Below, in pieces: positions 1,376 through 43,882 of a DNA stretch of 64,000 nt. Below the pieces are notes generated by a model, which saw nothing but the letters and a program-made list of their open reading frames with translations, searched no databases and was not told the origin of the DNA. Origin of the DNA: Anaerolineales bacterium UBA1429 (GTDB taxonomy: Bacteria > Chloroflexota > Anaerolineae > UBA1429); contig DCTX01000078.1 of the NCBI GenBank assembly GCA_002329325.1, positions 4,198-68,197 of the forward strand. The letters run 5' to 3'. The number at the start of each line of letters is the position of its first letter. Position 1 is the first letter of the stretch. Both the position numbers and the translations under genes were made by a program.

Positions 1376-1573
1376 AGTGGGTTACTCCTCTATAGGTCGG
1401 TTGTGTGTCAGATTACCTCGCGCAGAGAGCGCGGAGGGCGCAGAGCAGGTATGACCTACTCTCCCTCGCCATCCCGTCATCTCGTAGGGGCGAAGCTCGC
1501 CTTCGCCCTCCCTAGCTCTTCGTTCTTTGCGCGAAACTCGCCTTCATCCTTGCGGGCGTGCCAGGCGCGGCCC

Positions 1574-2920
1574 CTACTCCCCCATCTCCCCGTACCGGCA
1601 GGTGATCTCCCACAGCGTCTCATAGCCGAACGCCAGGCTTTCCAGCCAGAGGCCCTCGTCCACGGCGTGAGCGCCGCCGGTTCGCACCGCCTCGGGTTGC
1701 GGCAGAGCGGGGATGAACCCGTACACCGGCACGCCGCGGGGGATCAGGTGCTTGGCGTCGGTGGAGCCGGCGCACTGCCAGGGCACCACCTGGGCGCCCG
1801 CGACTTCCTCGGCGATCACCGCGCCGATCACATCCACGATGGGCGCATCGGGCGACGATTCCAGGCCGGGCGAGTACTGGCCCTGATGCAGTTCGACGGT
1901 CACCTCGTCTCCCGCCAGCTCCTGGAGGTGCGCCAGAAAGCCCTGCAGGGTCTGGCCCGGCAGGATGCGGCCATCCAGATAGGCCTGGGCCGTGGCGGGG
2001 ATGACGTTGATGCGATCCAGGTCGCCCGCGGCCAGCACCGTGGGCGAGACCGTGTTGTAAAAGAGGGCCCGATTGCGCGCCGCGCCCTCCGGCGAGAGCC
2101 CGGCCTCGATCAGGGCCTCCTCGATGCGCCCCCTGGCCAACAGCCCATCCACCTTGTGGCCGCGCGGCGCCGAATGGCTCTCGGCGATGGTCACCAGCGC
2201 CCTGCGCATGGTCTCGATGGCGCGCCCCTCCAGGTGGCCGTCGCCCAGGCGGGCCAGGGCGCGGGCCAGGCGGTAGGTGGCCAGGTCGTAGCGGGGCTGC
2301 GAGGCGTGGCCGCTGGCGGCTTGCGCCGTCCAGACGGTGCGGCAGACGCCCTTCTCGGCGGTCTGGATGGTGAAGAAGGTGCGCTCGCCCACGCGCATGG
2401 CGCTGCCTGCTCCCTCGTTCAGGGCGCAAGCGGGCTCCAGGATCTCGGGCTCGTTCTGGGCCAGCCAGCCCATGCCCCAGCGGCCGCCCTTCTCCTCATC
2501 GGCGGTGGCCGCCAGGATCACGTCGCGTTTGAGGCGGCGGCCCTCCGCGGCCAGCCGCAGCAGGATGGCCGCGCCATAGGCCACCATCTGCTTGTTGTCG
2601 GTGCTACCGCGCCCCCAAAGGACGCCATCCCGGATCTCGGCCTCAAAGGGCGGATGGCTCCACGCCTCGGGGTCGGCGGCCACCACATCCAGGTGACCCA
2701 TGAGCATCAGGGGGCGGGCCTCCCCGGTGCCGCGCCAGCGGGCGATCAGGTTGCCGCGCCCCGGCGCAGGCTCGATGATGCGCGTCTCGATGCCTGCCGG
2801 GGCCAGCAGGTCGGCCAGGTAGCGGGCGCAGGCAATCTCGTTGCCGGGAGGGTTGGTGGTATCCATGCGCACCAGAGCTTGCAAAATCTCGATCACCCTC
2901 GGGTAGGTTGGCTGCCCCAT
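1574..2920 (-). CDS. M20 family metallopeptidase (ArgE/DapE/CPG2-like)
   Basis: 448-aa ORF. The N-terminus LVRMDTTNPPGNE...LMLMGHLDVV...WGRGSTDNK is the typical M20 metal-binding and catalytic pattern. ATG start. Confidence 0.8.
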   Translation of the reverse strand: MGQPTYPRVIEILQALVRMDTTNPPGNEIACARYLADLLAPAGIETRIIEPAPGRGNLIARWRGTGEARPLMLMGHLDVVAADPEAWSHPPFEAEIRDGVLWGRGSTDNKQMVAYGAAILLRLAAEGRRLKRDVILAATADEEKGGRWGMGWLAQNEPEILEPACALNEGAGSAMRVGERTFFTIQTAEKGVCRTVWTAQAASGHASQPRYDLATYRLARALARLGDGHLEGRAIETMRRALVTIAESHSAPRGHKVDGLLARGRIEEALIEAGLSPEGAARNRALFYNTVSPTVLAAGDLDRINVIPATAQAYLDGRILPGQTLQGFLAHLQELAGDEVTVELHQGQYSPGLESSPDAPIVDVIGAVIAEEVAGAQVVPWQCAGSTDAKHLIPRGVPVYGFIPALPQPEAVRTGGAHAVDEGLWLESLAFGYETLWEITCRYGEMGE

Positions 2921-3285
2921 GCAAGATACCCCTTTCTCTAGCCGTCTGCCTCCAGGGTATCACAAGGCCGGGGGGCGCGCAAGACTCTTGCGGGGCGAGG
3001 CGAAGCCCCGATCCGTCAGGTATGGGCTTGCCCGGCGACAAGGGAGATCTCGCCACGCCCCCATCCCCCGACATGTCAGGATCTTCTCCGACCGCGCGGT
3101 GGGAAGAGGGGGCAGCGCCAGTGCCGCGCTTGCTTGCTGACGCGACGTTGTCCTGGCATGGCACCCCGGGTGGTATCCTGGCTGAGCGATCGTGCGTTTT
3201 GACCCCTCTCCCCCAATGGGCTACACTCACCCCGTTGGCTCCACCCGGCCTCAGTTGCCGTGTGACGGCTCATGGGGAGGTCAGT

Positions 3286-4494
3286 TTGGCTCTACGCCGC
3301 GCCTGCTATGGGATCGTTCTGTTGGCCTTGCTGGCCCTGGCGTTGCAGGGCTGCAGCGGCCGGCAGTTGCTCTACGATGTCTCCATCCGGCCCACCGTCA
3401 TCTCGCCCGATGCCGATGGGCAGGATGATATCGCCGAGGTCAAGTACTCCCTCTCGCGCTCGTCCCAAATCACCATCTATCTGCTGGATGAGAGCGGTCA
3501 GCGCCACGACCTGCGCGTCGCCGAGCGGCGCTCCAAGGGGGAACGCACCCTCTACTTTGGCGGCGTGGTGGATGGCCGCCTCCTGCCCGATGGCGACTAT
3601 ACCATGGTCTTTGAGGCTGTGGATGGGCGCGGGCATAGCGAGCGCACCGAAACGCCCATCACCCTGGCCGATGGCGATCCGGTGCCCATCGAGGTCGAGA
3701 ACCTCAACATCTGGCCCCAGACCTTTGAGCCCAACCGCGACGGCATCGCCGACCGGGTCAAGATCGGCTACAACCTGAACAAAGAAGCCGAGCGGGTGGA
3801 GGTCTACATCTTGGGAGCCGACGGTGCCAAGTACCCCGTGCCCGAGGACAAGATCCGTGAGGAGGGCGCGCCCGGCACCCACGAGCACGATTACGACGGC
3901 GGCATTGATCTAGGCGCCACGCCGCCCCCCGATGGCGATTATACCGTGGTGGTGATGGCGGAGGACGCCGTGGGCAACCGCTCCGAGGCCCGAGGCTCGC
4001 TGACCATCGAGGGCGGCGGCCTGCCTTTGGTGGAAATCATCCAGCGGGCGGCGGTGTTCGAGCCCTCGGTGGTGCCCCTGGGGACCACCCTCTACTTCAC
4101 CTGCACCGTCAAGAACATCGGCACGGTGCCCATCCGCACCAAGGGTCCCGAGCCCGGCACGATCTATAGCACCGCGCAGAACTATAACACCCTGGCGGAA
4201 TACGAGGAGCCGGGCATCTTTCGCGTTGGCCTGGATTACGAGGGCAACACCGAGGGCCGCAGCTATCCCTTCCGCTGGCAGCTCGGTATGGACGACGAGC
4301 TAACCGTGATTGACACCACCATCGGCCCGCAGCAGTACCTCATGCCCGGCCAGACCGTTACCGTCTGGGGCGGCCTGCGGGTGGACGATGTGCCCGTGAA
4401 GACAGAGCCGTACTACTGGCTGGGGTTGATCCATGAGCAGGTCTGGGTCGTGCAGGATCGCGTGGAACCCACCCAGATCGCCATCGGCTTCTAG
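3286..4494 (+). CDS. Lipoprotein with repeated FlgD-Ig/Ig-like beta-sandwich segments
   Basis: In frame with track ORF 2908..4494. I place the start at TTG 3286, 5 nt after GGGGAGG (3274-3280). That gives MALRRACYGIVLLALLALALQGC with a lipobox (LQGC). Repeated ISPDADGQDD / FEPNRDGIADR / PDGDYT segments resemble FlgD-Ig-type repeats. Confidence 0.6.
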   Translation: MALRRACYGIVLLALLALALQGCSGRQLLYDVSIRPTVISPDADGQDDIAEVKYSLSRSSQITIYLLDESGQRHDLRVAERRSKGERTLYFGGVVDGRLLPDGDYTMVFEAVDGRGHSERTETPITLADGDPVPIEVENLNIWPQTFEPNRDGIADRVKIGYNLNKEAERVEVYILGADGAKYPVPEDKIREEGAPGTHEHDYDGGIDLGATPPPDGDYTVVVMAEDAVGNRSEARGSLTIEGGGLPLVEIIQRAAVFEPSVVPLGTTLYFTCTVKNIGTVPIRTKGPEPGTIYSTAQNYNTLAEYEEPGIFRVGLDYEGNTEGRSYPFRWQLGMDDELTVIDTTIGPQQYLMPGQTVTVWGGLRVDDVPVKTEPYYWLGLIHEQVWVVQDRVEPTQIAIGF

Positions 4495-4504
4495 GCGGGC
4501 CTCC

Positions 4505-5440
4505 GTGGATCTGGGCGTCGTCATCGTCAGCTACAACACCTGTTCGTTGACCCTGGATTGCCTGGCCTCCGTCTATGCGGCGCTCACTCAAGGGCCGCTG
4601 GAGGCCCAGGTGTGCGTGGTGGACAATGCCTCCGGCGACGACAGCGCTGCCCGCATCGCCGAGCGCTACCCCCAGGCGATCCTGATCCGCAGCGAGGAGA
4701 ACCTGGGCTTTGCGGGGGGCACCAACCTGGGGCTGGCCCGCTTGCTGGCCCTTGACCCCGCGCCGCGCCACCTGCTGCTGCTCAACCCCGATACGCTGGT
4801 GCAGCCCCAGGCCCTCTCGCGCATGGTCGCCTTCTTGGATCAACGCCCCGATGTAGGCGCCGTGGGGGCCCAGTTGGCCTATGGCGACGGCAGCTTTCAG
4901 CACGGCGCCTTTCACTTTCCCACCCTCTGGATGGCCTTCTTTGACTTTTGGACCATCAACCACCGCCTGATCCACTCGCGGCTCAATGGCCGCTATCCCC
5001 GGCGGTTGTATGCGGCGGGCGAGCCCTTCCCCATCGATCACCCCCTGGGGGCCGCGCTGATGGCCCGCCGTGAGGCGCTGGAGCAGGTGGGCCTGCTGGA
5101 TGAGGGCTACTTTATGTATTGCGAGGAGATCGACTGGTGCCTGCGGGCCAAGCGCCTGGGCTGGGGGATCTACTGCGTGCCCCAGGCGCGCATCACTCAC
5201 CTGGAGGGCCAGAGCACCCGCCAGTTCCGCGAGCGCATGTTCATCGCCCTCTGGCGCAGTCGTTTTCGCCTGTTCACCAAGCACTATGGCGCGGCCTATC
5301 GCGCCGGGGTGCGCCTGATCTTGCGCGCCGGGTTGGCCCGCCAGAGCCGCCAGGTGCGCCGGATGCTGGCCAAGGGCGAGCTGGAGGCCGAAGCCGCCCA
5401 GCGGCAATTGGCCGCCTATCGCACCGTGTTGGAGATGTAG
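4505..5440 (+). CDS. Glycosyltransferase family 2
   Basis: VDLGVVIVSYNTCSLTLDCLASV...VVDNASGDDS...NLGFAGGTNLG...NPD is the classic GT2 (GT-A, DxD) pattern. GTG 4505 is chosen to avoid overlap with the upstream gene, so the start is uncertain. Confidence 0.8.
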   Translation: MDLGVVIVSYNTCSLTLDCLASVYAALTQGPLEAQVCVVDNASGDDSAARIAERYPQAILIRSEENLGFAGGTNLGLARLLALDPAPRHLLLLNPDTLVQPQALSRMVAFLDQRPDVGAVGAQLAYGDGSFQHGAFHFPTLWMAFFDFWTINHRLIHSRLNGRYPRRLYAAGEPFPIDHPLGAALMARREALEQVGLLDEGYFMYCEEIDWCLRAKRLGWGIYCVPQARITHLEGQSTRQFRERMFIALWRSRFRLFTKHYGAAYRAGVRLILRAGLARQSRQVRRMLAKGELEAEAAQRQLAAYRTVLEM

Positions 5441-5441
5441 C

Positions 5442-6200
5442 ATGGCACGCATCACCGTGGGCGTCCTGGCCGGGAACAACGAGGGGATCATCGCCGAGTG
5501 CCTGGAGAGCGCCGCCTGGGCCGATGAGCTGCTGGTGATCCTGGACGACCGCAGCACCGACGGCACCGCCGAGATCGCCCGTGGCCTGGGGGCGCGGGTG
5601 ATCCCCCATCGCTTTGAAGATTTCGCCCGGCAACGCAACTTTGGCCTGGAACAGGCGCGCACCGAATGGCTCTTTTACCTGGATTCCGACGAGCGGACCA
5701 CGCCGGCCCTGGGCCAGGAGATCCGCGGCCTGATCGAGGAGGGGACCTGCGCCGGCTGGTGGGTGCCCCGACGCAACTACATCTGGGGCAAAGAGACGCG
5801 CCATGGCGGCTGGTATCCCGATTACCAGCTTCGGCTGTTGCGAGTGGGCCGGGCCCAGTATGATCCGGCGCGACGCGTCCACGAGGTGGTGCTCCTGGAC
5901 GGCCCCGAGGGCTACCTGCAGGAGCACCTGCTGCACTACAACTATGCCAGCATGGCCCAGTTCATCGCCAAGCAGCGCCAATACGTGGACCTGGAGGCCC
6001 GCATTCGCCTGGCCGACGGCGCGCCCTCGCGGCCCCGCCACCTGATCACCCAGCCCCTCAGGGAGTTCTGGCGGCGCTACATCACACTGGAGGGCTATCG
6101 CGACGGCTGGCACGGCCTCAAGCTATGCGCCCTGGTGGCCTACTATTATGGTTTCCAGGTGGCGCGGCGGCTGATGCAGCTACGGCGGGCCGAGGGCTAG
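5442..6200 (+). CDS. Glycosyltransferase family 2 (small WaaE/KdtX-like type)
   Basis: ITVGVLAGNNEGIIAECLES...LVILDDRSTDGTAEIA...FARQRNFGL...LDSDE. The ATG lies 1 nt after the upstream stop. Confidence 0.75.
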   Translation: MARITVGVLAGNNEGIIAECLESAAWADELLVILDDRSTDGTAEIARGLGARVIPHRFEDFARQRNFGLEQARTEWLFYLDSDERTTPALGQEIRGLIEEGTCAGWWVPRRNYIWGKETRHGGWYPDYQLRLLRVGRAQYDPARRVHEVVLLDGPEGYLQEHLLHYNYASMAQFIAKQRQYVDLEARIRLADGAPSRPRHLITQPLREFWRRYITLEGYRDGWHGLKLCALVAYYYGFQVARRLMQLRRAEG

Positions 6201-35509: not shown

Positions 35510-36382
35510 CTAGCTCCCCTGCAAGCCCTCGGGGATGCCCGATTCGCAGGGCACGCCGGCCTGGCAGAGGCCGCAGCCATACCCGGCGAAACCGTACACG
35601 TCGCGCACGTGGGGGCGTGTGCGATCCAGATGGACGCGGCAGAGGCGCTTGTCGTGCCCCGCCTCGGTGATGGCGCCCACGGGGCAGCGCTTGATGCACT
35701 CGCCGCAGGTGCCCTTGGCGTAGAACAGGCAGTAGGCGTGGTGGTCGGTGTAGGGGCGCGGCGAGGGCGGCAGTTCAGCGCGGACCACCACCGAGCCCAC
35801 GCGCATGGCCTTGCCCACGGGGGTGATCAGCCCATCGCTCAGGCCAAAGGTGCCCAGCCCGCAGGCGTAGGCGGCATGCCGCTCTGACCAGGTGGAGGAG
35901 AAGACAAAGCGCTCCGAGTCCACGGTCTTGAACAGGGGCGAGATGGCCGGCGCAACGGCGCGATAGCCGCGGGCGGTGAGCGCCTCGGCCACCTGCCGCC
36001 GCAGGCCCTCGTTGAAAATCTCGCCAAAGACGCGGGAGCGGGCCCAGCGTTCCGCCAGGTAGAGCGCCTCGCGCCGGTTGTCGGCCTTGGTGGCCCCCGT
36101 CTGGGGCAGCACCCAGGAAACGACCGATAGCTCGGCGGGCTCGGCCGGGGCGTCAGGGTAGGTGAGGGCATAGATCTCGGCGGGCGTCCAGTGTTCGGGC
36201 CCCACATGCTCCTTGTAGGCCACAAAGAGGGGGTCATCGCCCCTGGCGAATCCCACCAGAGGGGTTCCCCAGGCGGGCTCATCAAAAGCCCCTCCCAGGG
36301 CGTTCTCCGGCCCGGCGCAGATGCGGCGGATCAGGTCGGCGACCCATTCGGCCAGTGGTGCGCCCTCGCGTGCAAGCATCAT
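35510..36382 (-). CDS. 4Fe-4S protein of the epoxyqueuosine reductase (QueG)/reductive-dehalogenase superfamily
   Basis: Start moved to ATGATG at 36382 after AAAGGGGA. SERHAAYACGLGTFG, CGECIKRCPVGAI and CGLCQAGVPC are cluster motifs as in QueG-like proteins. Confidence 0.6.
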   Translation of the reverse strand: MMLAREGAPLAEWVADLIRRICAGPENALGGAFDEPAWGTPLVGFARGDDPLFVAYKEHVGPEHWTPAEIYALTYPDAPAEPAELSVVSWVLPQTGATKADNRREALYLAERWARSRVFGEIFNEGLRRQVAEALTARGYRAVAPAISPLFKTVDSERFVFSSTWSERHAAYACGLGTFGLSDGLITPVGKAMRVGSVVVRAELPPSPRPYTDHHAYCLFYAKGTCGECIKRCPVGAITEAGHDKRLCRVHLDRTRPHVRDVYGFAGYGCGLCQAGVPCESGIPEGLQGS

Positions 36383-36419
36383 CCGGTTGTTCCCCTTTCG
36401 CCCTCGTGCGCGGCAGCGA

Positions 36420-37283
36420 TCAGCCCGCCGCCTCCACCTTCTTGAAGAGATCCATGTACACGTTGCGCACCATGCGTGGCCCCTCCCACGAATCGGCCTC
36501 GGCCAGCTCGACGGCGCGGGCCCCCAGCACCTCGGGCAGCACGTCGCCATCGTAGCCGTCATCCTTGAGGATGCGCAGCCAGCGCACCAGATCGATGAAT
36601 CCCTCGCCCGGCAGGACGCGGTCGGAATCGGCCATGGTCTCGGGATCCACTCCCTCAGGCAGGTCAAAGACATGAAGCGTCAGGGGCAGGCCCTTGACCT
36701 TATGCAGGTCCTCAAAGGTGCCGCCGCCGGCCCACCAATGGATCACATCCAGGATCAGGCCCAGATTGGGGCGATTGACCCGCTCGATGAGCTCCAGAGC
36801 TGCGTTCAAGCCCATGACCCAGGGATACATGATCTGCCGGGGGGCGGGCCGCCTCACCTGGGGGCCCAGGAACTCGAACACGACCGGCACGTCATAGCGG
36901 CCGGCCCAATCGCAATAGGCCCGGAACTTGGCCACGAGCCACTCCCACTCCGATTCCGTAACGGCCTTGGGCCAGCGGTTGGGGCACATGAAGGTGGCCT
37001 TGCCCCCCAGCTCGGCCAGCAGCTTGAGGCGCGGCTCGGCGCTGGCCAGCGCCTCGTCCCACAGGCTGCCCTCCAGGCTCCAGGAGAGGCCCATCGCCCC
37101 CGTGGCTACGGCGACACGATTGCGCTGCAGGAGCTCCTTGAGCTCATCCGCGGCGTTGCGCGCCAGATACGAATCGAACACATCCGGTCCCAGGCCGATG
37201 GAGCCGAATCCGAGGCCTCCCCCGATGACGACCCTGCCCTCAAAGTCCAGACGCTGCGGAAAGTTGCCGATCTGCAATCGCAT
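36420..37283 (-). CDS. Sugar phosphate isomerase/epimerase (xylose isomerase-like TIM barrel)
   Basis: Start moved to MRLQIGNF (ATG 37283) after GAAGGAGG. VVFEFLG, LGLILDVIHW and GEGFIDLVRWLRIL are typical AP-endonuclease-2/TIM-barrel family patterns. Confidence 0.7.
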   Translation of the reverse strand: MRLQIGNFPQRLDFEGRVVIGGGLGFGSIGLGPDVFDSYLARNAADELKELLQRNRVAVATGAMGLSWSLEGSLWDEALASAEPRLKLLAELGGKATFMCPNRWPKAVTESEWEWLVAKFRAYCDWAGRYDVPVVFEFLGPQVRRPAPRQIMYPWVMGLNAALELIERVNRPNLGLILDVIHWWAGGGTFEDLHKVKGLPLTLHVFDLPEGVDPETMADSDRVLPGEGFIDLVRWLRILKDDGYDGDVLPEVLGARAVELAEADSWEGPRMVRNVYMDLFKKVEAAG

Positions 37284-37701
37284 GGTGATCCTCCTTCTGT
37301 CGTGCCGTGCTGCCGGAGTCGGCCTTGCGGCTCCGATCCCGATCAGTCTACTCGCAAGCGAGGCGGGCTGCAATGGCAAGGTGCGTCGGGGTGAGAGGCC
37401 TGGGTTGCTCTCATCCCCACGGACATCCCGCGCATGGGGCGGCCTGGCACCCCTTTCCCCGTAACGCGCCTCAAGCGATTTCATCAAGACGAACGACAAA
37501 AGAGCGATTGCGATTGTATAATCGGGGCAATGGTGATAAAATCGGTTGGCGGCAAGCAACAGCAGAGGAATCACTTTTGGAACCGGAGGGCGGGGCTCGG
37601 CCGAGAGCGATCTGTGATTTGAGTCGTGCCGGTTGCCAACGGCCTGGCATTCAGCCGATCCGGCGTGCCGCACCCCCTTCTTTATTGTGCCCACCACAGA
37701 G

Positions 37702-40700
37702 ATGGCTTTCCGTGCAATGTACGGCGAGTTCCCACTGATCAGCAACAAGATCCAGATCCCCCAGCGCGCTCCCACCATGCTGCGGCGCGAGCGTCTGGTA
37801 GGGTTTCTGCATAGCAACATCAACCACAAGTTGGTGCTCGTCTCCGCCGGCGCTGGCTATGGCAAGACCGCGCTCCTGGTGGACTATGCCCACGACGCCG
37901 AGCTCCCCGTCTGCTGGTATAGCCTGGATGCCGGCGATAACCATGCCCTGACCTTTGTCGAGTACCTGGTCGCCTCGATCCAGCGGCGCTTTCCTGATTT
38001 CGGCGAGAGCGTCCTTCGCGCGCTGCACTCCTTCCGCGGCCAGGCTGAGGATGTCGAGCCGTTCATCCGCCTGCTGATCGCCGAGATCGAGGAAAAGATC
38101 AGCGGCTACTTTGCCATCGTGCTGGATGACTATCACGAGGTGCTGGAGAGCGAGCCCGTCAATGCCCTGGTGGACGGGCTCCTGCGCTATCTACCCGAGC
38201 ACTGCCACCTGGTCATCTCCTCCCGAGCCATTCCGCGTCGCCTGACCCTCACCCGGCTGGCCGCCCGCGAGGAGATCGTGGGCCTGGGCGTGCGCCAGCT
38301 CAAGTTCACCCGCGACGAGATCCGCCAGGTGCTGGCCCTGCGGGGCATCACCGATGTGGACCCCCAGCGCCTCGATGCCCTGACGGCCCGGTCGGAGGGC
38401 TGGATCACCGCCATCCTGCTGGCTGCCCAGACCCGCTGGAACGAGACGATCGAGGAGATCGTCAACCTATCCGGCTCGCTGGACAATATCTTTGACTATC
38501 TGGCCCAGGAGGTGCTCTCTCAGCAGACTCGCGAGATGCAAGAGTTCTTGCTGGGCAGCTCCGTTCTGGAGGAGATGAGCGCTCCGCTCTGCGATTCCCT
38601 CCTGGGTATCCGCAATTCGGCCCAGATACTGCGCAGCCTGACGGAGCAAGGCCTGTTCACCTTTGAGATCAACAGCTCGGCGGGCTGGTATCAGTATCAC
38701 CAGCTCTTCCGCGAGTTCCTGGTGAACAAGCTCGAGACCGAGCGCCCCGAGGACTACCGCCAGTTGTGCCTCGGAGAGGCGCGCCTCATGGCAAACCAGG
38801 GGCGCTGGCCGTGGGCCATCCAGGGATTCCTCACCGCCCAGGCTCACGATCGCGCTGCCGATGCTCTGGAGCTCGTCGCGCAAGACTATTTCGATGCCGG
38901 GCGCCGCGACGAGGTGCAGGCGTGGATCGATGCCCTGCCCGAGCCGATTCTGCGCGAGCACCCCCGCCTGATGCTGCTGCGGGCCAAGATCAGCACCGAA
39001 AAGGGCGCTTACGAGCAGGCAGAGAGCCTGCTGGAGCCGACCTATGAGATTTACGCCCAACGGGGCAGCGGGCCCGGCCTGGCCCAGGTATTGGTGCAGC
39101 AGGCCATCCTCAACCGCATTCAGGAGCACATCCCCGAGGCCATGGCGGCCTGCCAGCGCGTGTTTGAGACCATCGAGGAGAGGGAGGATCCCACCTCCTT
39201 TGTGCGGGCGCACCAGAACCTCGGCATCTGCTATCACATGCTGGGGAACGTAGAGCAGGGCGTCCAGGAGATGCGGTGCGCCCTGGAGCTGGCCGAGGCC
39301 CACGGCGATACCGTGAGCGCAGCCTATCTCGCCCACGACATGGGCACCAGCCTGCACCTGCAGGGTGCCATGGAGGATGCGCGGCGCTACCTCCACCGCG
39401 CCCTGATGCATTGGCGGCGCGTGGGCAACCCTGCTGACCTGGCCATGACCCTGCAAGGTCTGGGCGTCATCCACCACCATCAGGCCCAGTATGCCGAAGC
39501 ACAGAATCGCTATGAAGAGAGCATCGAAAAGGCCCGCCAGATCGGCAACAGCCGCCTGGAGGCCTATGCCCTTCTGAACAATGGCGATCTGCAGAAGGAT
39601 CGGGGGAGGCTGGACGAAGCCCTGACGCTGTACAGCGAGGCCCTCGATGTGGCGTCGTCCATCGGGTCGGTGGGCCTGGCGCTGTACGTGCTGGCCTCGA
39701 TGGGCGATGCGTACCGCCTGAAGAAGGACACGCCCCGGGCGTGGCAGGTGCTCACCGAGGCGCTGGATCAGAGCGAGCGCCAGGGCGTTGATGAGCCCAT
39801 TGGCCTGGCGCACCTGGCCTTTGGCGCGCTGGCCGTCCAGGAGCAGCGATCCGAGGAGGCGGCGAGCCATCTGACCGAGGCGGGGGAGCGGCTCGAGCGG
39901 GCCGGCGCCCAGCGGGACCTGGCCCGGGTGTACCTGCAACTGGCCCTGTTGGCCCGGCAGGATAGCGATCCCCAGACACTGCGCGATTCCCTGGAGCGTC
40001 TGGGTGAGTTGGCGGTGCGGCTGGGCACCGACCAGTTCATCGTGGCCGAGGGCCCCAACGCCATTCGTCTGTTGCCCTATATTGCCGAGTGGGATATCCG
40101 GGGGCTGGATGCCGTCCACATTCGGGCGCAGATCGAGGAGCTCTTCCCCGCCGTGGTGATGGAGCCGAGGCTGCGCGTGGTGCGCTCCGATGCCGACCTG
40201 GAGCTGCTGGCGCTGGATGGCAGCCAGGTCATCTACAAGGGCAACATCGTGCGCGACTTCGAGTCCTCGGTGGCGCGCACCATGGCGTTCCTGCTGGCCC
40301 AGTATCCCGCGGGCCTATCCAAAGAGCGAATCAGCGACATGCTGTGGCCCGATAACTCGCAGGCGCGCAGCGAAAGCCTCTTCCACTCGACCATCTACCG
40401 CCTGCGCCGGGCGCTGGACAAGAACGCCATCGTGCAGATGAGCGGCGTCTATCGGCTGAGCCCCAACCTGGAGTATCGCTACGATGTGGCCGAGTTCGAG
40501 CAGCTGGCGCGCCTGGGCCGCGCCCGCGACGAATCGGGCCGCATCGCCCGCATCAGCGCCATCGATCTCTACCGCAACGAGTTCCTGGAGGCGCAGGACT
40601 ATCCCTGGTGCGTCGAGATCCGTTATGCGCTGCAAAACGAGATGATCCGCCTGTTGACCATCGAGGCGGATTTCCTTGCTCTGCACGACAGCCCCGAGGC

Positions 40701-40929
40701 AGCCGAGACGCTCTATCTGCGCGTCTTGGCCCTGGACGAGCTGGACGAACGCGCCCATCGGGGCGTGATGTGGTGCCGGGCCAAGCTGGGCGATGCGCCG
40801 GGGGCCATGCGCCAGTTCCGCGCCTGCAGCCGGGTGATCGAGCAGGATATGGGGGTGCCCCCGCGCCCGGATACGAAACGCATGTTTGAGCTGATCCACC
40901 ATGGCGAGGTACCCCGAGAGCCCTTCTGA
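37702..40929 (+). CDS. MalT-like STAND ATPase with TPR array and C-terminal SARP module (OmpR-type winged helix + BTAD)
   Basis: The N-terminus is collinear with E. coli MalT from memory (SNKIQIPQ..., Walker A SAGAGYGKTALL, WYSLDAGDN, Walker B AIVLDDYH, SEGWITAILLAA). The middle 450 aa or so are TPR-like. The C-terminus ARTMAFLLAQYPAGLSKERISDMLWP...STIYRLRRAL is a winged helix, and ISAIDLYRNEFL...RAHRGVMWCRAKLGDAPGAMRQFR is BTAD. Start is 37702 or 37717. Confidence 0.8.
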   Translation: MAFRAMYGEFPLISNKIQIPQRAPTMLRRERLVGFLHSNINHKLVLVSAGAGYGKTALLVDYAHDAELPVCWYSLDAGDNHALTFVEYLVASIQRRFPDFGESVLRALHSFRGQAEDVEPFIRLLIAEIEEKISGYFAIVLDDYHEVLESEPVNALVDGLLRYLPEHCHLVISSRAIPRRLTLTRLAAREEIVGLGVRQLKFTRDEIRQVLALRGITDVDPQRLDALTARSEGWITAILLAAQTRWNETIEEIVNLSGSLDNIFDYLAQEVLSQQTREMQEFLLGSSVLEEMSAPLCDSLLGIRNSAQILRSLTEQGLFTFEINSSAGWYQYHQLFREFLVNKLETERPEDYRQLCLGEARLMANQGRWPWAIQGFLTAQAHDRAADALELVAQDYFDAGRRDEVQAWIDALPEPILREHPRLMLLRAKISTEKGAYEQAESLLEPTYEIYAQRGSGPGLAQVLVQQAILNRIQEHIPEAMAACQRVFETIEEREDPTSFVRAHQNLGICYHMLGNVEQGVQEMRCALELAEAHGDTVSAAYLAHDMGTSLHLQGAMEDARRYLHRALMHWRRVGNPADLAMTLQGLGVIHHHQAQYAEAQNRYEESIEKARQIGNSRLEAYALLNNGDLQKDRGRLDEALTLYSEALDVASSIGSVGLALYVLASMGDAYRLKKDTPRAWQVLTEALDQSERQGVDEPIGLAHLAFGALAVQEQRSEEAASHLTEAGERLERAGAQRDLARVYLQLALLARQDSDPQTLRDSLERLGELAVRLGTDQFIVAEGPNAIRLLPYIAEWDIRGLDAVHIRAQIEELFPAVVMEPRLRVVRSDADLELLALDGSQVIYKGNIVRDFESSVARTMAFLLAQYPAGLSKERISDMLWPDNSQARSESLFHSTIYRLRRALDKNAIVQMSGVYRLSPNLEYRYDVAEFEQLARLGRARDESGRIARISAIDLYRNEFLEAQDYPWCVEIRYALQNEMIRLLTIEADFLALHDSPEAAETLYLRVLALDELDERAHRGVMWCRAKLGDAPGAMRQFRACSRVIEQDMGVPPRPDTKRMFELIHHGEVPREPF

Positions 40930-40951
40930 TCTCCCAAAAGCCCTTGCGAAC

Positions 40952-40990
40952 AAACGCGCGAATTCTCGACGAATCGCGCGTTTTTCTTTG
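40952..40990 (+). terminator. Intrinsic terminator after the STAND/SARP regulator gene
   Basis: Stem aaacgcgcga / tcgcgcgttt (7 GC-rich bp plus A:T extension) with a 12-nt loop, followed by tttttctttgttt. Confidence 0.55.
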
Positions 40991-41004
40991 TTTCGGGGCC
41001 ATTT

Positions 41005-41037
41005 CGTGAGTGATCCGTGAGTCTCACTGTGTATTCT
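41005..41037 (+). promoter_or_regulatory. Two direct CGTGAGT heptads at 11-bp periodicity upstream of a -10-like TATTCT (activator-dependent promoter candidate)
   Basis: CGTGAGT at 41005-41011 and again at 41016-41022. TATTCT at 41032-41037 lies 9 nt after the second heptad. There is no good -35. The second heptad is also part of the palindrome GTGAGTCTCAC (41017-41027). Confidence 0.4.
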
Positions 41038-41070
41038 TACGGCGAACCTTGAGCTACAGGAGGGAGCCGA

Positions 41071-41247
41071 ATGAAGCGACTGCATCGGAACGTTGTCTAC
41101 ACCGTGCTCTCCGTGGCAGCGCTGGCAGTGGCCGGGAGCGCGCCCATCCCCTGGAGCGGCTCGGGCGGCGGTGGCGGTAGCATCATCGACATGATTCTAT
41201 ATTTCCTTCGGGTGTTTGGCCCACGGATTACTAGGGGGCAATCATGA
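41071..41247 (+). CDS. Micro-ORF A (58 aa), signal-peptide-like N-terminus, APIPWS motif, Gly-run, hydrophobic/cationic tail
   Basis: Not in the ORF track (too short). ATG 41071 lies 5 nt after AGGAGGGA. Translation: MKRLHRNVVYTVLSVAALAVAGSAPIPWSGSGGGGGSIIDMILYFLRVFGPRITRGQS. It is a paralogue of micro-ORF B. Confidence 0.45.
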   Translation: MKRLHRNVVYTVLSVAALAVAGSAPIPWSGSGGGGGSIIDMILYFLRVFGPRITRGQS

Positions 41248-41336
41248 AGAAGGCATTCGTTCACATCGTTTACGTGGTTCTCTCGGCGGCGGCATTGGTC
41301 GTAGCGGCCGGCGCGCCCATCCCCTGGAGCACCTGA
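41244..41336 (+). CDS. Micro-ORF B (30 aa), signal-peptide-like, ends PIPWST
   Basis: ATG 41244 overlaps the TGA of ORF A (ATGA) and follows AGGGGG. Translation: MKKAFVHIVYVVLSAAALVVAAGAPIPWST. It is 18/30 identical to the N-terminus of ORF A and shares a perfect 20-nt repeat with it. Confidence 0.45.
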   Translation: MKKAFVHIVYVVLSAAALVVAAGAPIPWST

Positions 41337-41377
41337 GTTAGGCGCATAGACGCAGAACCAGAGCCCAGCAAGCTATC

Positions 41378-41962
41378 ATGATTCTGGTTCTGGCAGTTGC
41401 CCTTTCGATTTTGATTGCCCTGTTACGGGGAGGCAGCCTAAATAGGCTCGCTCAAGTACCTTTCAAACTTGGTTGGTTGGCCTTTATCGCCATAGGCCTG
41501 CAGGTAGTGGCCGTCTACGTCCAGCAAGTCGAGGGCCTGGCAGCGTGGCTGTTCGTGCTCTCCTACGCGGTCCTGATCGGCCTGATCGTGATCAACTACC
41601 GGGTGGCAGGCGTGCTGGTCATCGGGGTGGGGCTGGGCCTCAATGCCCTGGTGACGGCGCTCAACGGCGGCTACATGCCGGTGACACCGGAGGCGGTAGA
41701 ACGAGCCGGGCTCACCCACCTGGTGAGCGAGATGGAGGCGGGCGCGCGAGTGTTGGGCGCCAAAGACATCCTTCTGGCCCGCGCCGATACGCAGCTCTGG
41801 TTCCTCGGCGACATATTCGTGCTCAAAGGCCCCTGGCCAACCGTATTCAGCATCGGGGATGTGCTTCTGGTCATCGGCATCCTGATCTTTTTCCAGCAAG
41901 CGATGCGACCGGGCGCTTCTGATAAGGCGATTCGCCAGCAGACGCCGGACATCCTCGAGTAG
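41378..41962 (+). CDS. Polytopic membrane protein, DUF5317-like
   Basis: 194 aa with about 5 TM segments. ALNGGYMPVTPEAVERAG and FSIGDVLLVIGILIFF match my recollection of DUF5317, which I have not verified. Confidence 0.6.
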   Translation: MILVLAVALSILIALLRGGSLNRLAQVPFKLGWLAFIAIGLQVVAVYVQQVEGLAAWLFVLSYAVLIGLIVINYRVAGVLVIGVGLGLNALVTALNGGYMPVTPEAVERAGLTHLVSEMEAGARVLGAKDILLARADTQLWFLGDIFVLKGPWPTVFSIGDVLLVIGILIFFQQAMRPGASDKAIRQQTPDILE

Positions 41963-42016
41963 CTCCCTTTTTCACAACTTTGACAATCACGCTCTGTTAG
42001 CGATGGAGATGACAGC

Positions 42017-42241
42017 ATGCGACACGAAAACATCCAAGCCCTCATCGGTACCGCGATCGTGGATGCCGAATTCCGGCAGCACCTGCTGGAGGACGCGTCT
42101 GCCGTCATCGGCGATTTTGGGCTCACGCCCGAAGAGGCGAACGCCATCCTGTCCATCAAGGCGACCACGTTCCAGGGCTTTGCCAGCCAAGTGCATGCCT
42201 GGATCACCAGTCGCAGCAGCGTTCCCGTGCTGTATTACTGA
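42017..42241 (+). CDS. 74-aa NHLP/Nif11-leader-like protein (possible RiPP-precursor-like or Os1348-type NHLP-clan protein)
   Basis: ATG 42017 follows GGAGA. NIQALIGTAIVDAEFRQHLLEDASAVIGDFGLTPEEANAIL matches the helix pattern L..A..D..FR..LL.D...a...fgLt.eE recalled for NHLP/Nif11-type leaders. GC3-rich codons. Confidence 0.5.
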   Translation: MRHENIQALIGTAIVDAEFRQHLLEDASAVIGDFGLTPEEANAILSIKATTFQGFASQVHAWITSRSSVPVLYY

Positions 42242-42286
42242 TTTCGTGACTCGATAGCCACCGGCTATCAGAGCCCCACATCCCCG

Positions 42287-42324
42287 GCGCGTAGCACCCC
42301 CCCTTGCTGCGCGCCCTTTTCTTT
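42287..42324 (+). terminator. Intrinsic terminator closing the micro-ORF/DUF5317/NHLP-like unit
   Basis: 10-bp stem gcgcgtagca / tgctgcgcgc (one G:U) with an 8-nt C-rich loop, followed by ccttttcttt. Confidence 0.55.
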
Positions 42325-42385
42325 GCCTCGGGGCCGCCTGAACAGGCGGCTCGCTCTCGCTGCAGCCCCGGGTGGAGGCGAGCCC

Positions 42386-42997
42386 ATGGACGATGCACAG
42401 CTTCTTCCCGCCTGGGCGCCCCGCGTGCCCCAGGCCCTGATCCGCAGGCTCTACGAGACCGACGCCCAGGGCATCTATGACGAGGAGCTCCTGGATGAGG
42501 TCGGCTATGCGTTGCTGGCCAGGTGCCAGAGCTTTATCGAGGCCAACGAGGCCCGGGCAGGCCGCGTGCGCTGCCCCCGCTGCAGCGCCGAGATCACCCG
42601 TACCTGGAAGGAGCAGGAGATCCTGCGCTGCGACTGCGGCTGGGCTCTGCCCTGGCGCGATTACTTTGCCACCATCCAGCACGCGCAGCTCAGCGGCGCC
42701 GAGCCCGTCCTCGAGCAGTTCCGCGCCTATGTGGCGGGCTTTCCCCTGGCCCGCACCCCGGGCGAGCGCATGATCGCCATCGATCGCCTGATCCACGGCT
42801 TTCACTGGTATCTCAAGATCAACAGCCCCACACGCCCTGTGGCCGTCAATCTGATCGAGGGCCGTATGCGTCGGGTGATTGCTTTTCTCGACCGGCTGAC
42901 GTACAGTGGCCAGAGTACTCCTGGCCTGCGAGAGAACTATGACCAGTGGGACCAACTGCTGGCCGTGCACCCCGAATGGTACCCCGGGCGAAAGTAG
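42386..42997 (+). CDS. Hypothetical protein with CPRC...CDC zinc-ribbon-like motif
   Basis: Start moved to MDDAQ (ATG 42386) after GGAGGCG. RVRCPRCSAEITRTWKEQEILRCDCGW. No family recognised. Confidence 0.55.
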   Translation: MDDAQLLPAWAPRVPQALIRRLYETDAQGIYDEELLDEVGYALLARCQSFIEANEARAGRVRCPRCSAEITRTWKEQEILRCDCGWALPWRDYFATIQHAQLSGAEPVLEQFRAYVAGFPLARTPGERMIAIDRLIHGFHWYLKINSPTRPVAVNLIEGRMRRVIAFLDRLTYSGQSTPGLRENYDQWDQLLAVHPEWYPGRK

Positions 42998-43063
42998 GTC
43001 AACGTGGGCCCCGCGCCTCTGCCCGAGAGCGCAGGGGCGCGGGGCAGCGCAAGGAGCCTTGGC

Positions 43064-43882
43064 ATGAGCACAGGATACGTACACGGCTACGATGCGGCCG
43101 AAGCCCAAAGGCTGCAGGATCAGGCGCATACCCTGGTGGATCTGTTGCATGGCGATACGGCCTATCCCAGGGGGCACACGATCCTGGAGGCCGGCTGTGG
43201 GGTGGGCGCTCAAACGGTCACCCTGGCGCAGAACAGCCCCGGGGCCCACATCGTCTCCGTGGATCTCTCGCTGACCTCCGCCGCCGAGGCCCGGCGCGTG
43301 GTGCAGGCGGCCGGCCTGCGCAACGTGGCCGTCTGCCAGGCCGACATCTTGAGCCTCCCCTTTCCGCCGGAATCGCTCGACCACGTCTTTGTGTGTTTTG
43401 TGCTGGAGCACCTGGCTCGCCCGATCGAGGCCTTGCGGGCCCTGGGGCGGGTCCTCAAGGTTGGCGGCACCATCACGGTGATCGAGGGCGATCACGGCTC
43501 CGCCTATTTCTATCCGGATAGCGCCTCTGCCCGAAGGGCGATCGGGTGCCAGATCGAGCTGCAGGCGCGGGCCGGCGGCAACGCCCTGGTCGGCCGCACG
43601 CTCTATCCCCTGCTCCGAGAGGCCGGTTTCGATGCCGTGCACGTCTCGCCGCGCATGGTCTATGCCGATGCCAGCAGGCCCGGCCTCGTGGATGGCTTTA
43701 TCCGCAAGACCTTTAACGCCATGATCGAAGGCGTCAGGGAGCCCTCCATCGCCGCCGGGCTCGTGGAGGCGAAGGACTTTGACAGGGGCGTGGCCGATCT
43801 GCACCGCACGACCGAGGCGGACGGCGTCTTTTGCTATACCTTCTTCAAGGCCGTCGGGCGCAGAGGATCGGCCACCCCATAA
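43064..43882 (+). CDS. Class I SAM-dependent methyltransferase
   Basis: ATG 43064 follows [18 protein letters not shown] (motif I), VDLS and [11 protein letters not shown]. Confidence 0.8.

Follow-up and report, generated by a model that had tools for sequence, protein, structure and literature searches.

A Chloroflexota cassette of a STAND-SARP regulator, predicted exported micro-peptides, a DUF5317 membrane protein and an Os1348-like protein: a candidate peptide signaling loop

Gene content and conservation of the cassette

We analyzed a stretch of 64,000 nt from Anaerolineales bacterium UBA1429 (contig DCTX01000078.1 of assembly GCA_002329325.1), referred to as the window in the following, in which position 1 is the first letter. 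On its plus strand lie, in this order, the gene of a large regulator (subsequently named REG), a terminator, two direct heptads with a −10-like hexamer, two micro-open reading frames (micro-ORFs, m1 and m2), the gene of a DUF5317 membrane protein, the gene of a small Os1348-like protein and a second terminator. Seven features had been listed here by an earlier note on this DNA, and all of them were found in the window sequence. From the comparison with related loci we read the region as one copy of a four-component cassette that appears to be specific to Chloroflexota. The features are the following:

37702–40929, plus strand: REG, predicted cytoplasmic STAND regulator of 1075 amino acids (aa) from ATG, with a MalT-type NOD, a TPR region and a C-terminal SARP domain
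37849–37869, plus strand: Walker A motif GAGYGKT of REG (residues 50–56, read in the translation), within the MalT NOD match
39088–40074, plus strand: TPR sensor-type region of REG (residues 463–791), PF17874 TPR_MalT with E 3.8e-14 and PF13424 TPR_12 with E 1.8e-25
40279–40893, plus strand: SARP DNA-binding/activation domain of REG (OmpR-type winged helix and BTAD, residues ∼860–1064), predicted from domain matches
40952–40996, plus strand: terminator 1 (of REG), bulged stem (40952–40983) with 10-nt perfect arms, followed by a T-run up to 40996
41005–41011 and 41016–41022, plus strand: heptads CGTGAGT-N4-CGTGAGT in 11-nt register, candidate binding site of REG (SARP)
41032–41037, plus strand: −10-like hexamer TATTCT, 9 nt past the 3′ heptad, read from the sequence
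41071–41247, plus strand: m1, 58 aa, leader MKRLHRNVVYTVLSVAALAVAGS, then APIPWSGSGGGGG and a 22-aa extension
41244–41336, plus strand: m2, 30 aa, leader MKKAFVHIVYVVLSAAALVVAAG, then APIPWST, the predicted released heptapeptide (encoded at 41313–41333)
41378–41962, plus strand: DUF5317 protein, 194 aa, PF17248 with E 1e-30 and 107 bits against a gathering threshold of 25, covering model positions 2–151 of 151
42017–42241, plus strand: Os1348-family protein of the NHLP clan, 74 aa, helical, NF038399 with 53.0 bits against a cut-off of 40
42286–42325, plus strand: terminator 2 (operon end), 11-bp stem (42286–42315) with 8 GC pairs and a T-run, fold z −5.7

A locus scan with one genome per species for relatives of the DUF5317 protein yielded 37 loci, all of them in Chloroflexota metagenome bins. 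A REG homologue lies directly upstream in 34 of the 37, with identities from 87% down to ∼30%. Between REG and DUF5317 a micro-ORF of the same design was found in 33 loci, with one further divergent case, and an Os1348-like ORF follows DUF5317 in about 33. This gene order recurs in more than 35 independent loci, even where REG identity is down to ∼30%. A reverse search with a micro-ORF profile returned 101 further unannotated members, and all four micro-ORF loci inspected on long contigs (4/4) carry REG, micro-ORF, DUF5317 and a small protein in this order. The 37-locus scan and the reverse test thus confirmed the conservation of the micro-ORFs and of the gene order, a point which the earlier note had left to be checked.

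The RNA fold of terminator 1 has an energy of −28.3 kcal/mol (z −4.3), which was reached by none of 200 shuffled sequences; a consensus terminator scan overlooked this terminator because its stem is bulged. The ORFs, both terminators and the domain matches support what had been proposed, namely that m1, m2, DUF5317 and the Os1348-like gene form a compact, terminator-bounded predicted operon behind a regulator of the ligand-sensing type.

The regulator, its candidate promoter and the micro-ORF family

Relatives of REG align from residue 1–5 of the protein. Residues 12–423 match the NOD structure of MalT (8BOB, E 8e-40). In the C-terminal part, BTAD was detected above its cut-off at residues 928–1064 (E 3.6e-13) together with a weak match to Trans_reg_C (E 0.003), and the last 245 aa match the SARP chains of AfsR in complexes with RNA polymerase (8HVR, 8K60 and 8JKE) with E 5e-7 over ∼200 residues. 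By these domain matches REG carries the three modules of AfsR in the permuted order NOD-TPR-SARP. Two other assignments were rejected. REG is not MalT proper, as the MalT model NF003420 gives 276 bits, which is under its equivalog cut-off of 537, and covers residues 12–537 only, and as the C-terminus is a SARP domain instead of a LuxR-type helix-turn-helix (HTH). Neither is it a receptor of the RNPP/RRNPP type, since it has a Walker A-bearing NOD and a SARP output and does not consist of TPRs only. One locus (L033) contains a second REG copy, with no second micro-ORF or DUF5317 gene within the 1.2 kb at hand.

The CGTGAGT pair is the sole exact heptad pair in the 64-kb window. Direct repeats in 11-nt register, with the same or a co-varying sequence, are located 5′ of the first micro-ORF in most related loci, and the motif TAnnnT recurs 9 (± 1) nt past the 3′ repeat across loci. 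The repeat sequence differs by clade (CGTGAGT, TGTGAGT, GGTTAG, GTAAGT, CGTTCAGAG and GGCACAGCA), the geometry being constant. Using a strict scan, in which two copies of a 7-mer had to lie 11 nt apart with no more than one mismatch and be followed after 7–11 nt by TAnnnT, we found this architecture in 21 of 35 loci compared with 0.6% of 3,000 control segments from the same loci. According to the published rule for SARP promoters, the repeats are 11 or 22 bp apart and the 3′ repeat lies 8 bp from the −10 element (PMC10936776). The heptads and TATTCT match this geometry and can be regarded as a putative SARP site. Because the rule fits and REG is the only SARP protein found beside the heptad sites, we infer that REG activates the peptide operon, as AfsR does with the adjacent afsS.

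The first micro-ORF, m1, is preceded by GGAGG (41059–41063), has homologues in L002–L008 and is annotated as a gene by NCBI (P0232). It overlaps m2 via ATGA, and the two are paralogous (72% DNA identity over 68 nt). We compared m2 with two intact copies in L002, the closest relative of the window: the protein is 100% identical, and among 29 codons there are 6–7 synonymous and 0 non-synonymous changes. As all differences are synonymous, the micro-ORFs are not just chance ORFs; they are under purifying selection and probably translated. Shine-Dalgarno motifs are found ahead of the micro-ORFs across loci. Neither m1 nor m2 matches a model of Pfam or NCBIfam, and the micro-ORF family as a whole has no model in either.

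The family was characterized with 131 distinct sequences of 28–58 aa. The eight residues ahead of the hydrophobic run are net positive in 98% of them, and the uncharged run before an Ala-Pro pair comprises 15–20 residues (median 16). Numbering from the predicted cleavage site before this pair, the composition is as follows:

Position −3 (n = 131): A 114, V 8, G 6, S 2, T 1
Position −1 (n = 131): G 113, A 14, S 4
Position +1: A in 130 of 131
Position +2: P in 131 of 131

The cleavage site is placed before Ala-Pro because the −3/−1 rule holds across all 131 family members. The micro-ORF products are predicted to be Sec-type pre-peptides with a site for type I signal peptidase, and the released peptides would start with Ala-Pro. 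The secretion signals that had been noticed in m1 and m2 earlier are thereby borne out, by the −3/−1 rule in 131/131 sequences and by the synonymous-only changes, as those of predicted exported pre-peptides.

The tail from Ala-Pro to the stop codon has a median of 9 residues and does not exceed 14 residues in 112 of the 131 sequences. Tails are of several types (APxx[FYW]GGx, APICxxC, APDGxxCxxxxC, APE[TS]LPW and APFRWW); the clade of the window has APIPWSG[ST]GGG with or without an amphipathic extension, and m2 ends in APIPWST. At least two Cys are present in 19/131 tails, for example in APICxxC. In three subgroups the last 17 leader residues show 65–94% pairwise identity (92–94% in two of these), and hypervariable tail positions with a pairwise identity of 0.11–0.49 lie between invariant positions.

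The number of micro-ORFs per cassette ranges from one to six. Six tandem copies with a period of 174 bp occur in L007 (4924–5922), where copies b, c and d are identical in DNA sequence and copy e is one synonymous codon off. The final copy in L007 and in L005 (array at 5446–5922) is degenerate, with a weakened hydrophobic core (e.g. MKRRHISVVYVLRAPQASVIAGGAGVPWSETGEGAFPNGLFR). The array in L002 (5346–5957) is interrupted by a stretch of N, where the repeats have probably led to an assembly gap.

DUF5317 and the Os1348-like protein

The membrane protein, described earlier as DUF5317-like, is a true member of this family, which comprises 7,344 clusters at 50% identity. An AlphaFold model (predicted local distance difference test score, pLDDT, 89.9; predicted template modeling score, pTM, 0.83) has five helices and a β-rich loop of ∼60 residues between helices 4 and 5. 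Counts of Lys and Arg place the N-terminus outside and the C-terminus inside, with loops 1 and 3 inside and the large loop (residues 96–158) outside; the fusions described below, which carry cytoplasmic domains at this C-terminus, agree with the topology. Among 120 sequences G98, M100, P101, D145, S158 and D161 are invariant and N96 and G97 near-invariant; the conserved residues sit in the large loop and at the outward ends of the helices that flank it (4 and 5). Searched against PDB sequences, the DUF5317 profile hit nothing but GPCRs at chance level (E > 1), and Foldseek found no match of the model in the PDB at E ≤ 10. AgrB (PF04647) did not match any of 27 DUF5317 members, even at E ≤ 10. 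Furthermore, we rejected a reading of the SIGD motif as that of a GxGD-type intramembrane protease (prepilin peptidase, presenilin), because there was no Pfam signal at E 10, the peptides lack the Gly-1 prepilin site and the conserved DUF5317 residues face outward. A perfect 10-bp inverted repeat surrounds the DUF5317 start codon at 41378 (window 41353–41392). A hairpin that limits DUF5317 translation relative to the peptides was considered here and rejected, as the fold is no better than that of shuffled sequences (z −0.9).

A second scan covered a different DUF5317 clade in metagenomes (80 loci, L054–L133). Neither REG nor the Os1348-like gene was found near DUF5317 in any of these 80 loci. 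In 46 cases a same-strand gene ends just upstream of DUF5317, and 37 of these genes encode enzymes of cyclic di-GMP (c-di-GMP) turnover: 26 HD-GYP proteins, 11 of them with MASE9, and 11 GGDEF-EAL proteins, the genes often overlapping with DUF5317. No consistent family was found downstream of DUF5317 in this clade, and within the searchable literature there is no report of an association between c-di-GMP enzymes and DUF5317. Fusions were sought among the top 150 family representatives; they are few and all come from metagenomes. One protein is a DUF5317-PAS-GAF-GGDEF fusion (P0270, L139:3001–5784) preceded by an HD-GYP gene, and two are DUF5317-TPR fusions. In a further case (L138:5001–6074) one ORF joins DUF5317 in-frame to an Os1348-like domain via a basic linker of ∼50 residues at the cytoplasmic end of DUF5317. 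This locus is a full cassette, with REG at 1498–4674 and a micro-ORF at 4827–4931, and a receiver-domain gene lies past the fusion, which could be natural or result from a lost stop codon. Because of the c-di-GMP neighbors and the fusions to PAS-GAF-GGDEF, TPR and Os1348-like domains, DUF5317 seems to behave as a membrane input module of signaling proteins, whose cytoplasmic C-terminus would meet the downstream partner.

Micro-ORFs of the same design also occur beside DUF5317 genes without REG and the Os1348-like gene (L041:3702–3839, L079:454–549, L123:1673–1759, L130:1481–1567 and L125:421–525), including a few loci of the other clade. They too have a basic N-terminus and, behind the hydrophobic run, Ala-Pro with an aromatic tail (e.g. 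APFRWW or APFKWYMFINW); tails in the other clade include LVLAAPFRWW, LVAAAPFKWYMFINW and LVLAVGAPESLAGG. In L041 the micro-ORF is located 5′ of a GGDEF-EAL gene that overlaps DUF5317. In an Ignavibacteriales bin (L039:3837–6558) the peptidoglycan amidation genes murT and gatD come before DUF5317, and genes for a MASE9-HD protein and a SpoIIE-type phosphatase after it; a link of DUF5317 to cell-envelope status is possible from this order.

We also compared DUF5317 with signal peptidase II (LspA), using one DUF5317 sequence and a 9-sequence profile. The FSIGD at the start of the last DUF5317 helix resembles FNLAD of LspA, with F-[SN]-x-[GA]-D shared. Permissive profile alignments placed D145 and D161 of DUF5317 on D123 and D141 of LspA (E. 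coli numbering), the catalytic pair according to the Pseudomonas aeruginosa structure. The hhalign score was 25.2, compared with 13.0 ± 2.1 for 150 column shuffles (all lower), a lenient control for membrane proteins, and with 15.2 for the reversed profile. Homology to LspA is not significant: the hhalign probability was 3–7%, Peptidase_A8 matched 1 of 27 members with E 1.6, and there was no Foldseek match. This motif-level resemblance is a lead, not family membership, and it keeps alive the possibility of a processing enzyme.

The 74-aa protein had been called NHLP-like by the earlier note, which agrees with its passing the Os1348 model NF038399. PF14407 matched below its cut-off (E 2e-9), NHase_alpha, LigA and DurB matched weakly, and the direct sequence match to the crystal-structure chain 6LK7 reached only E 0.59. 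Among close relatives the protein is 96–100% identical where DUF5317 is 64–79% identical, and is there the most conserved gene product of the cassette. In an alignment of 28 homologues the first ∼65 residues are conserved, and the C-terminal tail varies in length by clade; its sequence SRSSVPVLYY is nearly invariant in the clade of the window. A Gly-Gly or Gly-Ala leader site with a variable core rich in Cys, Ser or Thr is absent from this alignment. NHLP and Frankia_peptide domains have been classed with leaders of ribosomally synthesized and post-translationally modified peptides (RiPPs), including ComX, and ECOD groups the fold with Nif11, ComX and NHase-alpha leaders (PMC12353581). The Os1348 prototype from Pseudomonas is a helical dimer that has been linked to antibiotic activity and has GNAT, HEXXH and SagB neighbors (PMC7726476); such neighbors are absent beside the 74-aa protein. 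The Os1348-like gene and REG are present together or absent together, and neither occurs in the 80 loci of the other DUF5317 clade. Because of this co-occurrence and the fusion in L138, a role as cytoplasmic partner of DUF5317 and REG would fit better than that of a precursor.

In the window the cassette is surrounded by housekeeping genes (mreBCD, PBP2 and minCD) rather than by a defence island. No LanM, YcaO, radical SAM or C39-peptidase ABC exporter was found in the window neighborhood or among the called genes of the cassettes read, and no known maturase, C39 exporter or immunity family in more than 40 cassettes, in agreement with the earlier note, which had seen no known maturase. Past the operon terminator (42323–43882) a 224-aa protein with a weak zinc-ribbon match and a class I S-adenosylmethionine-dependent methyltransferase are encoded; as they are common only to the window and L002, they lie outside the conserved cassette. 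Three long ORFs of 550, 605 and 357 aa (38467–40119 and 41987–43804 on the minus strand, 36321–37394 on the plus strand) are antisense to or overlap real genes. They are not genes but by-products of high G+C content, and their translations are of low complexity and rich in Arg, Gly and Ala. Several cassettes are followed by receiver-domain or histidine-kinase genes (L034:7054–7344, L134:6029–6776, L137:6155–7240 and L138:6055–6429), and one is interrupted by such a gene (L019:6551–6928), which hints at cross-talk of the cassette with two-component signaling in some lineages.

Proposed function, rival explanations and known systems

We propose that the cassette is a self-activating signaling loop built on an exported peptide, and assign a probability of roughly 0.5 to a loop of this general form. 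REG would drive the peptide operon from the heptad promoter. The micro-ORF products would be exported via Sec and cleaved directly ahead of the invariant Ala-Pro; the peptides so released would have 6–14 residues (here APIPWST, and APIPWSG with an extension), and a few hypervariable tail positions may give these peptides their specificity. DUF5317 is a candidate for the membrane partner of the peptide, most likely its receptor, because its invariant acidic and polar site faces outward, to the same side as the released peptide. More speculatively, the Os1348-like protein, placed on the cytoplasmic end of DUF5317, could relay the receptor state to the TPR sensor of REG; REG would then be switched on and provide more peptide, receptor and relay, that is, autoinduction. 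In its complete form, with a Sec-exported Ala-Pro peptide read by DUF5317 as a new small membrane receptor and an NHLP-clan adaptor acting on the TPR region of a STAND-SARP regulator, this scheme is tentative, with the odds rather against it.

The earlier note had suggested two options, one of which was a peptide-signal circuit with the peptides sensed by the TPR region of the regulator. The circuit is favored by the short tails, by the conserved leader with its hypervariable tail and by the SARP-type promoter, but the regulator is not an RNPP receptor, and DUF5317 rather than the TPR region of REG now appears more likely to be the partner of the peptide. Several observations weigh against a signaling loop. 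All relatives found are metagenome bins, and the single fusion of DUF5317 to the Os1348-like domain, which could reflect a lost stop codon, comes from such a bin. The unusually strong conservation of the hydrophobic leader agrees just as well with a helix that is kept in the membrane, or with recognition inside it, as with a signal peptide that is discarded. Known pheromones do not usually have glycine-rich tails (SGSGGGGG), which are frequent here, or a further amphipathic extension, which is present in some of the tails. Clades without a micro-ORF conserve the invariant outer site of DUF5317 to the same degree, so that this site may bind a ligand other than the peptide. No peptide importer is conserved beside the cassette, and a scan of the window found no heptads in the promoter of REG itself, so that feedback would be limited to the peptide operon.

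RiPP precursors, too, typically combine a conserved leader with a core that is hypervariable at some positions, and occur in tandem, as here with as many as six copies in L007. The second option of the note was a minimal RiPP or bacteriocin cassette with DUF5317 as its only enzyme. Bioactive peptides would then be made from the micro-ORF products and perhaps also from the variable C-terminal tail of the Os1348-like protein; DUF5317 might be a dedicated aspartyl maturation peptidase, similar to signal peptidase II and cutting after the lipobox-like L-A-x-G, and might serve in immunity as well, and REG would be the usual SARP switch of a biosynthetic cluster. The 19 tails with at least two Cys would suit this, as would the classing of NHLP and Frankia_peptide domains with RiPP leaders (PMC12353581), the antibiotic activity linked to the Os1348 prototype (PMC7726476) and the alignment of D145/D161 with D123/D141 of LspA at similar spacing, with a shared F-[SN]-x-[GA]-D and an hhalign score above the shuffled and reversed controls. 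However, that relation is not significant (hhalign 6.7%, Peptidase_A8 E 1.6 in 1/27, no Foldseek match), the more than 40 cassettes lack a known maturase, C39 exporter or immunity family, and a product of 7 residues is too short for a pore-forming bacteriocin. The Os1348-like protein is 96–100% identical in relatives with a far less conserved DUF5317, and it has neither a Gly-Gly site nor a Cys-rich core. In addition, the PAS-GAF-GGDEF fusion of DUF5317 and its position beside c-di-GMP enzymes in loci without micro-ORFs are hard to square with a dedicated precursor peptidase. We consider this explanation unlikely, and the option is weakened by the input-domain behavior of DUF5317, by the 74-aa protein being the most conserved one and by the fusion in L138.

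Alternatively, the micro-ORF products might stay in the membrane and act on DUF5317 as small single-pass subunits or modulators, like MgrB on PhoQ, with no signaling between cells. The cassette would then sense the state of the envelope, and its output would be REG here and c-di-GMP enzymes in other lineages. The hydrophobic segment (92–94%) is indeed far more conserved than ordinary signal peptides. Micro-ORF and DUF5317 gene frequently overlap or lie end to end, a sign that their translation is coupled and their products are made in matched amounts, and the same invariant outer site is present in DUF5317 with or without a micro-ORF. The neighboring HD-GYP/MASE9 and GGDEF-EAL proteins suggest that DUF5317 is a membrane sensor of a general kind, and in one case its gene comes after those of MurT and GatD, which belong to peptidoglycan metabolism. 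An uncharged run of 15–20 residues (median 16), however, is short for a stable transmembrane helix and typical of the core and cleavage region of a signal peptide, and the signal-peptidase rule at −3/−1, kept in 131/131 sequences, would be needless for an uncleaved anchor. Hypervariable beside invariant tail positions suggest a specificity determinant, and up to six identical tandem copies imply a peptide far in excess of its partner. A retained subunit is likewise improbable in our view. We regard it as very improbable that the cassette is an anti-phage or conflict system, in which the STAND sensor would detect an invader via its TPRs and induce small membrane-active toxic peptides for abortive infection. 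Defence systems often contain STAND NTPases with TPR sensors, and small hydrophobic peptides could in principle depolarize membranes, but PADLOC models gave only a generic TPR match for REG and nothing for the other genes. The cassette also appears to be vertically conserved, with its order kept down to ∼30% REG identity, and lies among housekeeping genes in the window, and the output of REG is a SARP transcription activator with a dedicated promoter and no nuclease or protease effector.

Members of the Chloroflexota, which abound in sludge, sediments and mats, are largely filamentous and uncultured, and in the searchable literature we found no description of peptide-based communication in this phylum, of DUF5317 as a sensor domain, or of DUF5317 and this gene combination at all. 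The cassette is compact and lends itself to tests: its promoter is defined, a peptide of 7 residues is predicted, and there are candidates for the receptor and for the relay. The 131 peptides with their conserved leaders and hypervariable tips are a ready set for tests of signal specificity. DUF5317 obtains a first functional context, in which it is tied to exported micro-peptides and to c-di-GMP enzymes, and a non-RiPP role is suggested for an NHLP-clan protein. If the complete scheme is true, the NHLP/ComX-type 'leader' fold would act as a signal adaptor instead of a RiPP leader, and in other lineages DUF5317 would serve c-di-GMP enzymes as a general input module. The SARP-type promoter logic of Streptomyces antibiotic clusters appears to operate in another phylum, with a permuted NOD-TPR-SARP regulator.

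As the earlier note had supposed, no described class fits the cassette: DUF5317 is absent from the searchable literature and the micro-ORF family from the Pfam and NCBIfam models. Parts of it nevertheless resemble known systems. The membrane protein recalls MASE-type sensors such as MASE9 in being the N-terminal part of a PAS-GAF-GGDEF protein and in being encoded directly after HD-GYP and GGDEF-EAL genes, but it is mostly stand-alone and has a structured outer loop of 60 residues with invariant Asp, Ser and Asp. It resembles LspA (peptidase A8) in two invariant Asp ∼16–18 residues apart on the outer face, between the last two transmembrane helices, and F-[SN]-x-[GA]-D at the opening of the last helix, and the candidate substrate ends in a lipobox-like L-A-x-G. 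DUF5317 differs by having five helices instead of four, no β-cradle between the first two and no significant match by hidden Markov model, profile or fold, and in the candidate substrate Ala-Pro takes the place of the Cys that is lipidated in lipoproteins. As a protein above the cut-off of the Os1348 model, the 74-aa protein shares with the Os1348/NHLP/Frankia_peptide/ComX clan an N-terminal helical domain and a variable C-terminal tail; unlike these it is without GNAT, HEXXH and SagB neighbors, Gly-Gly site and Cys-rich core, is extremely conserved among close relatives and is once fused to the cytoplasmic end of DUF5317. The Agr system (AgrD/AgrB) has a comparable layout: in an autoregulated operon, the gene of a small precursor adjoins that of a polytopic, ∼190-aa membrane protein. 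In contrast to Agr, homology to AgrB (PF04647) or to histidine kinases is missing here, the DUF5317 fold matches nothing in the PDB, the precursor has a Sec-type leader instead of an amphipathic N-terminus and a C-terminal tail, and the regulator is not a response regulator.

The logic is closest to that of the RRNPP systems (Rap/Phr, NprR/NprX, PlcR/PapR, PrgX, Rgg/SHP and AimR/AimP), in which a cytoplasmic TPR regulator adjoins a short pre-peptide gene whose product has an N-terminal export signal and a C-terminal part of 5–10 residues, as predicted here. Variable positions in the style of pherotypes are likewise present, and an autoinduction logic is possible. REG, however, is a STAND ATPase with a SARP output and not a TPR-only receptor with an N-terminal HTH, the obligatory DUF5317 and Os1348-like genes have no counterpart in these systems, no Opp-type importer is linked, and sensing may take place at the membrane instead of in the cytoplasm. 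AfsR-AfsS of Streptomyces is the other close counterpart. REG has the same three modules as AfsR (SARP match with E 5e-7), its presumed target lies directly downstream and encodes small proteins, and the promoter there resembles the afs box (PMC10936776) in having two direct repeats in 11-nt register right ahead of a −10 element that is weak. Here the order is NOD-TPR-SARP and not SARP-NOD-TPR, with a NOD closest to MalT, and the operon would provide exported peptides, a membrane protein and an NHLP-clan protein instead of a cytoplasmic AfsS-type protein, in Chloroflexota instead of Actinomycetota. The closest known systems are AfsR-AfsS for the regulator, the promoter and the adjacent small gene, and the RRNPP systems for the logic; the cassette is a member of neither.

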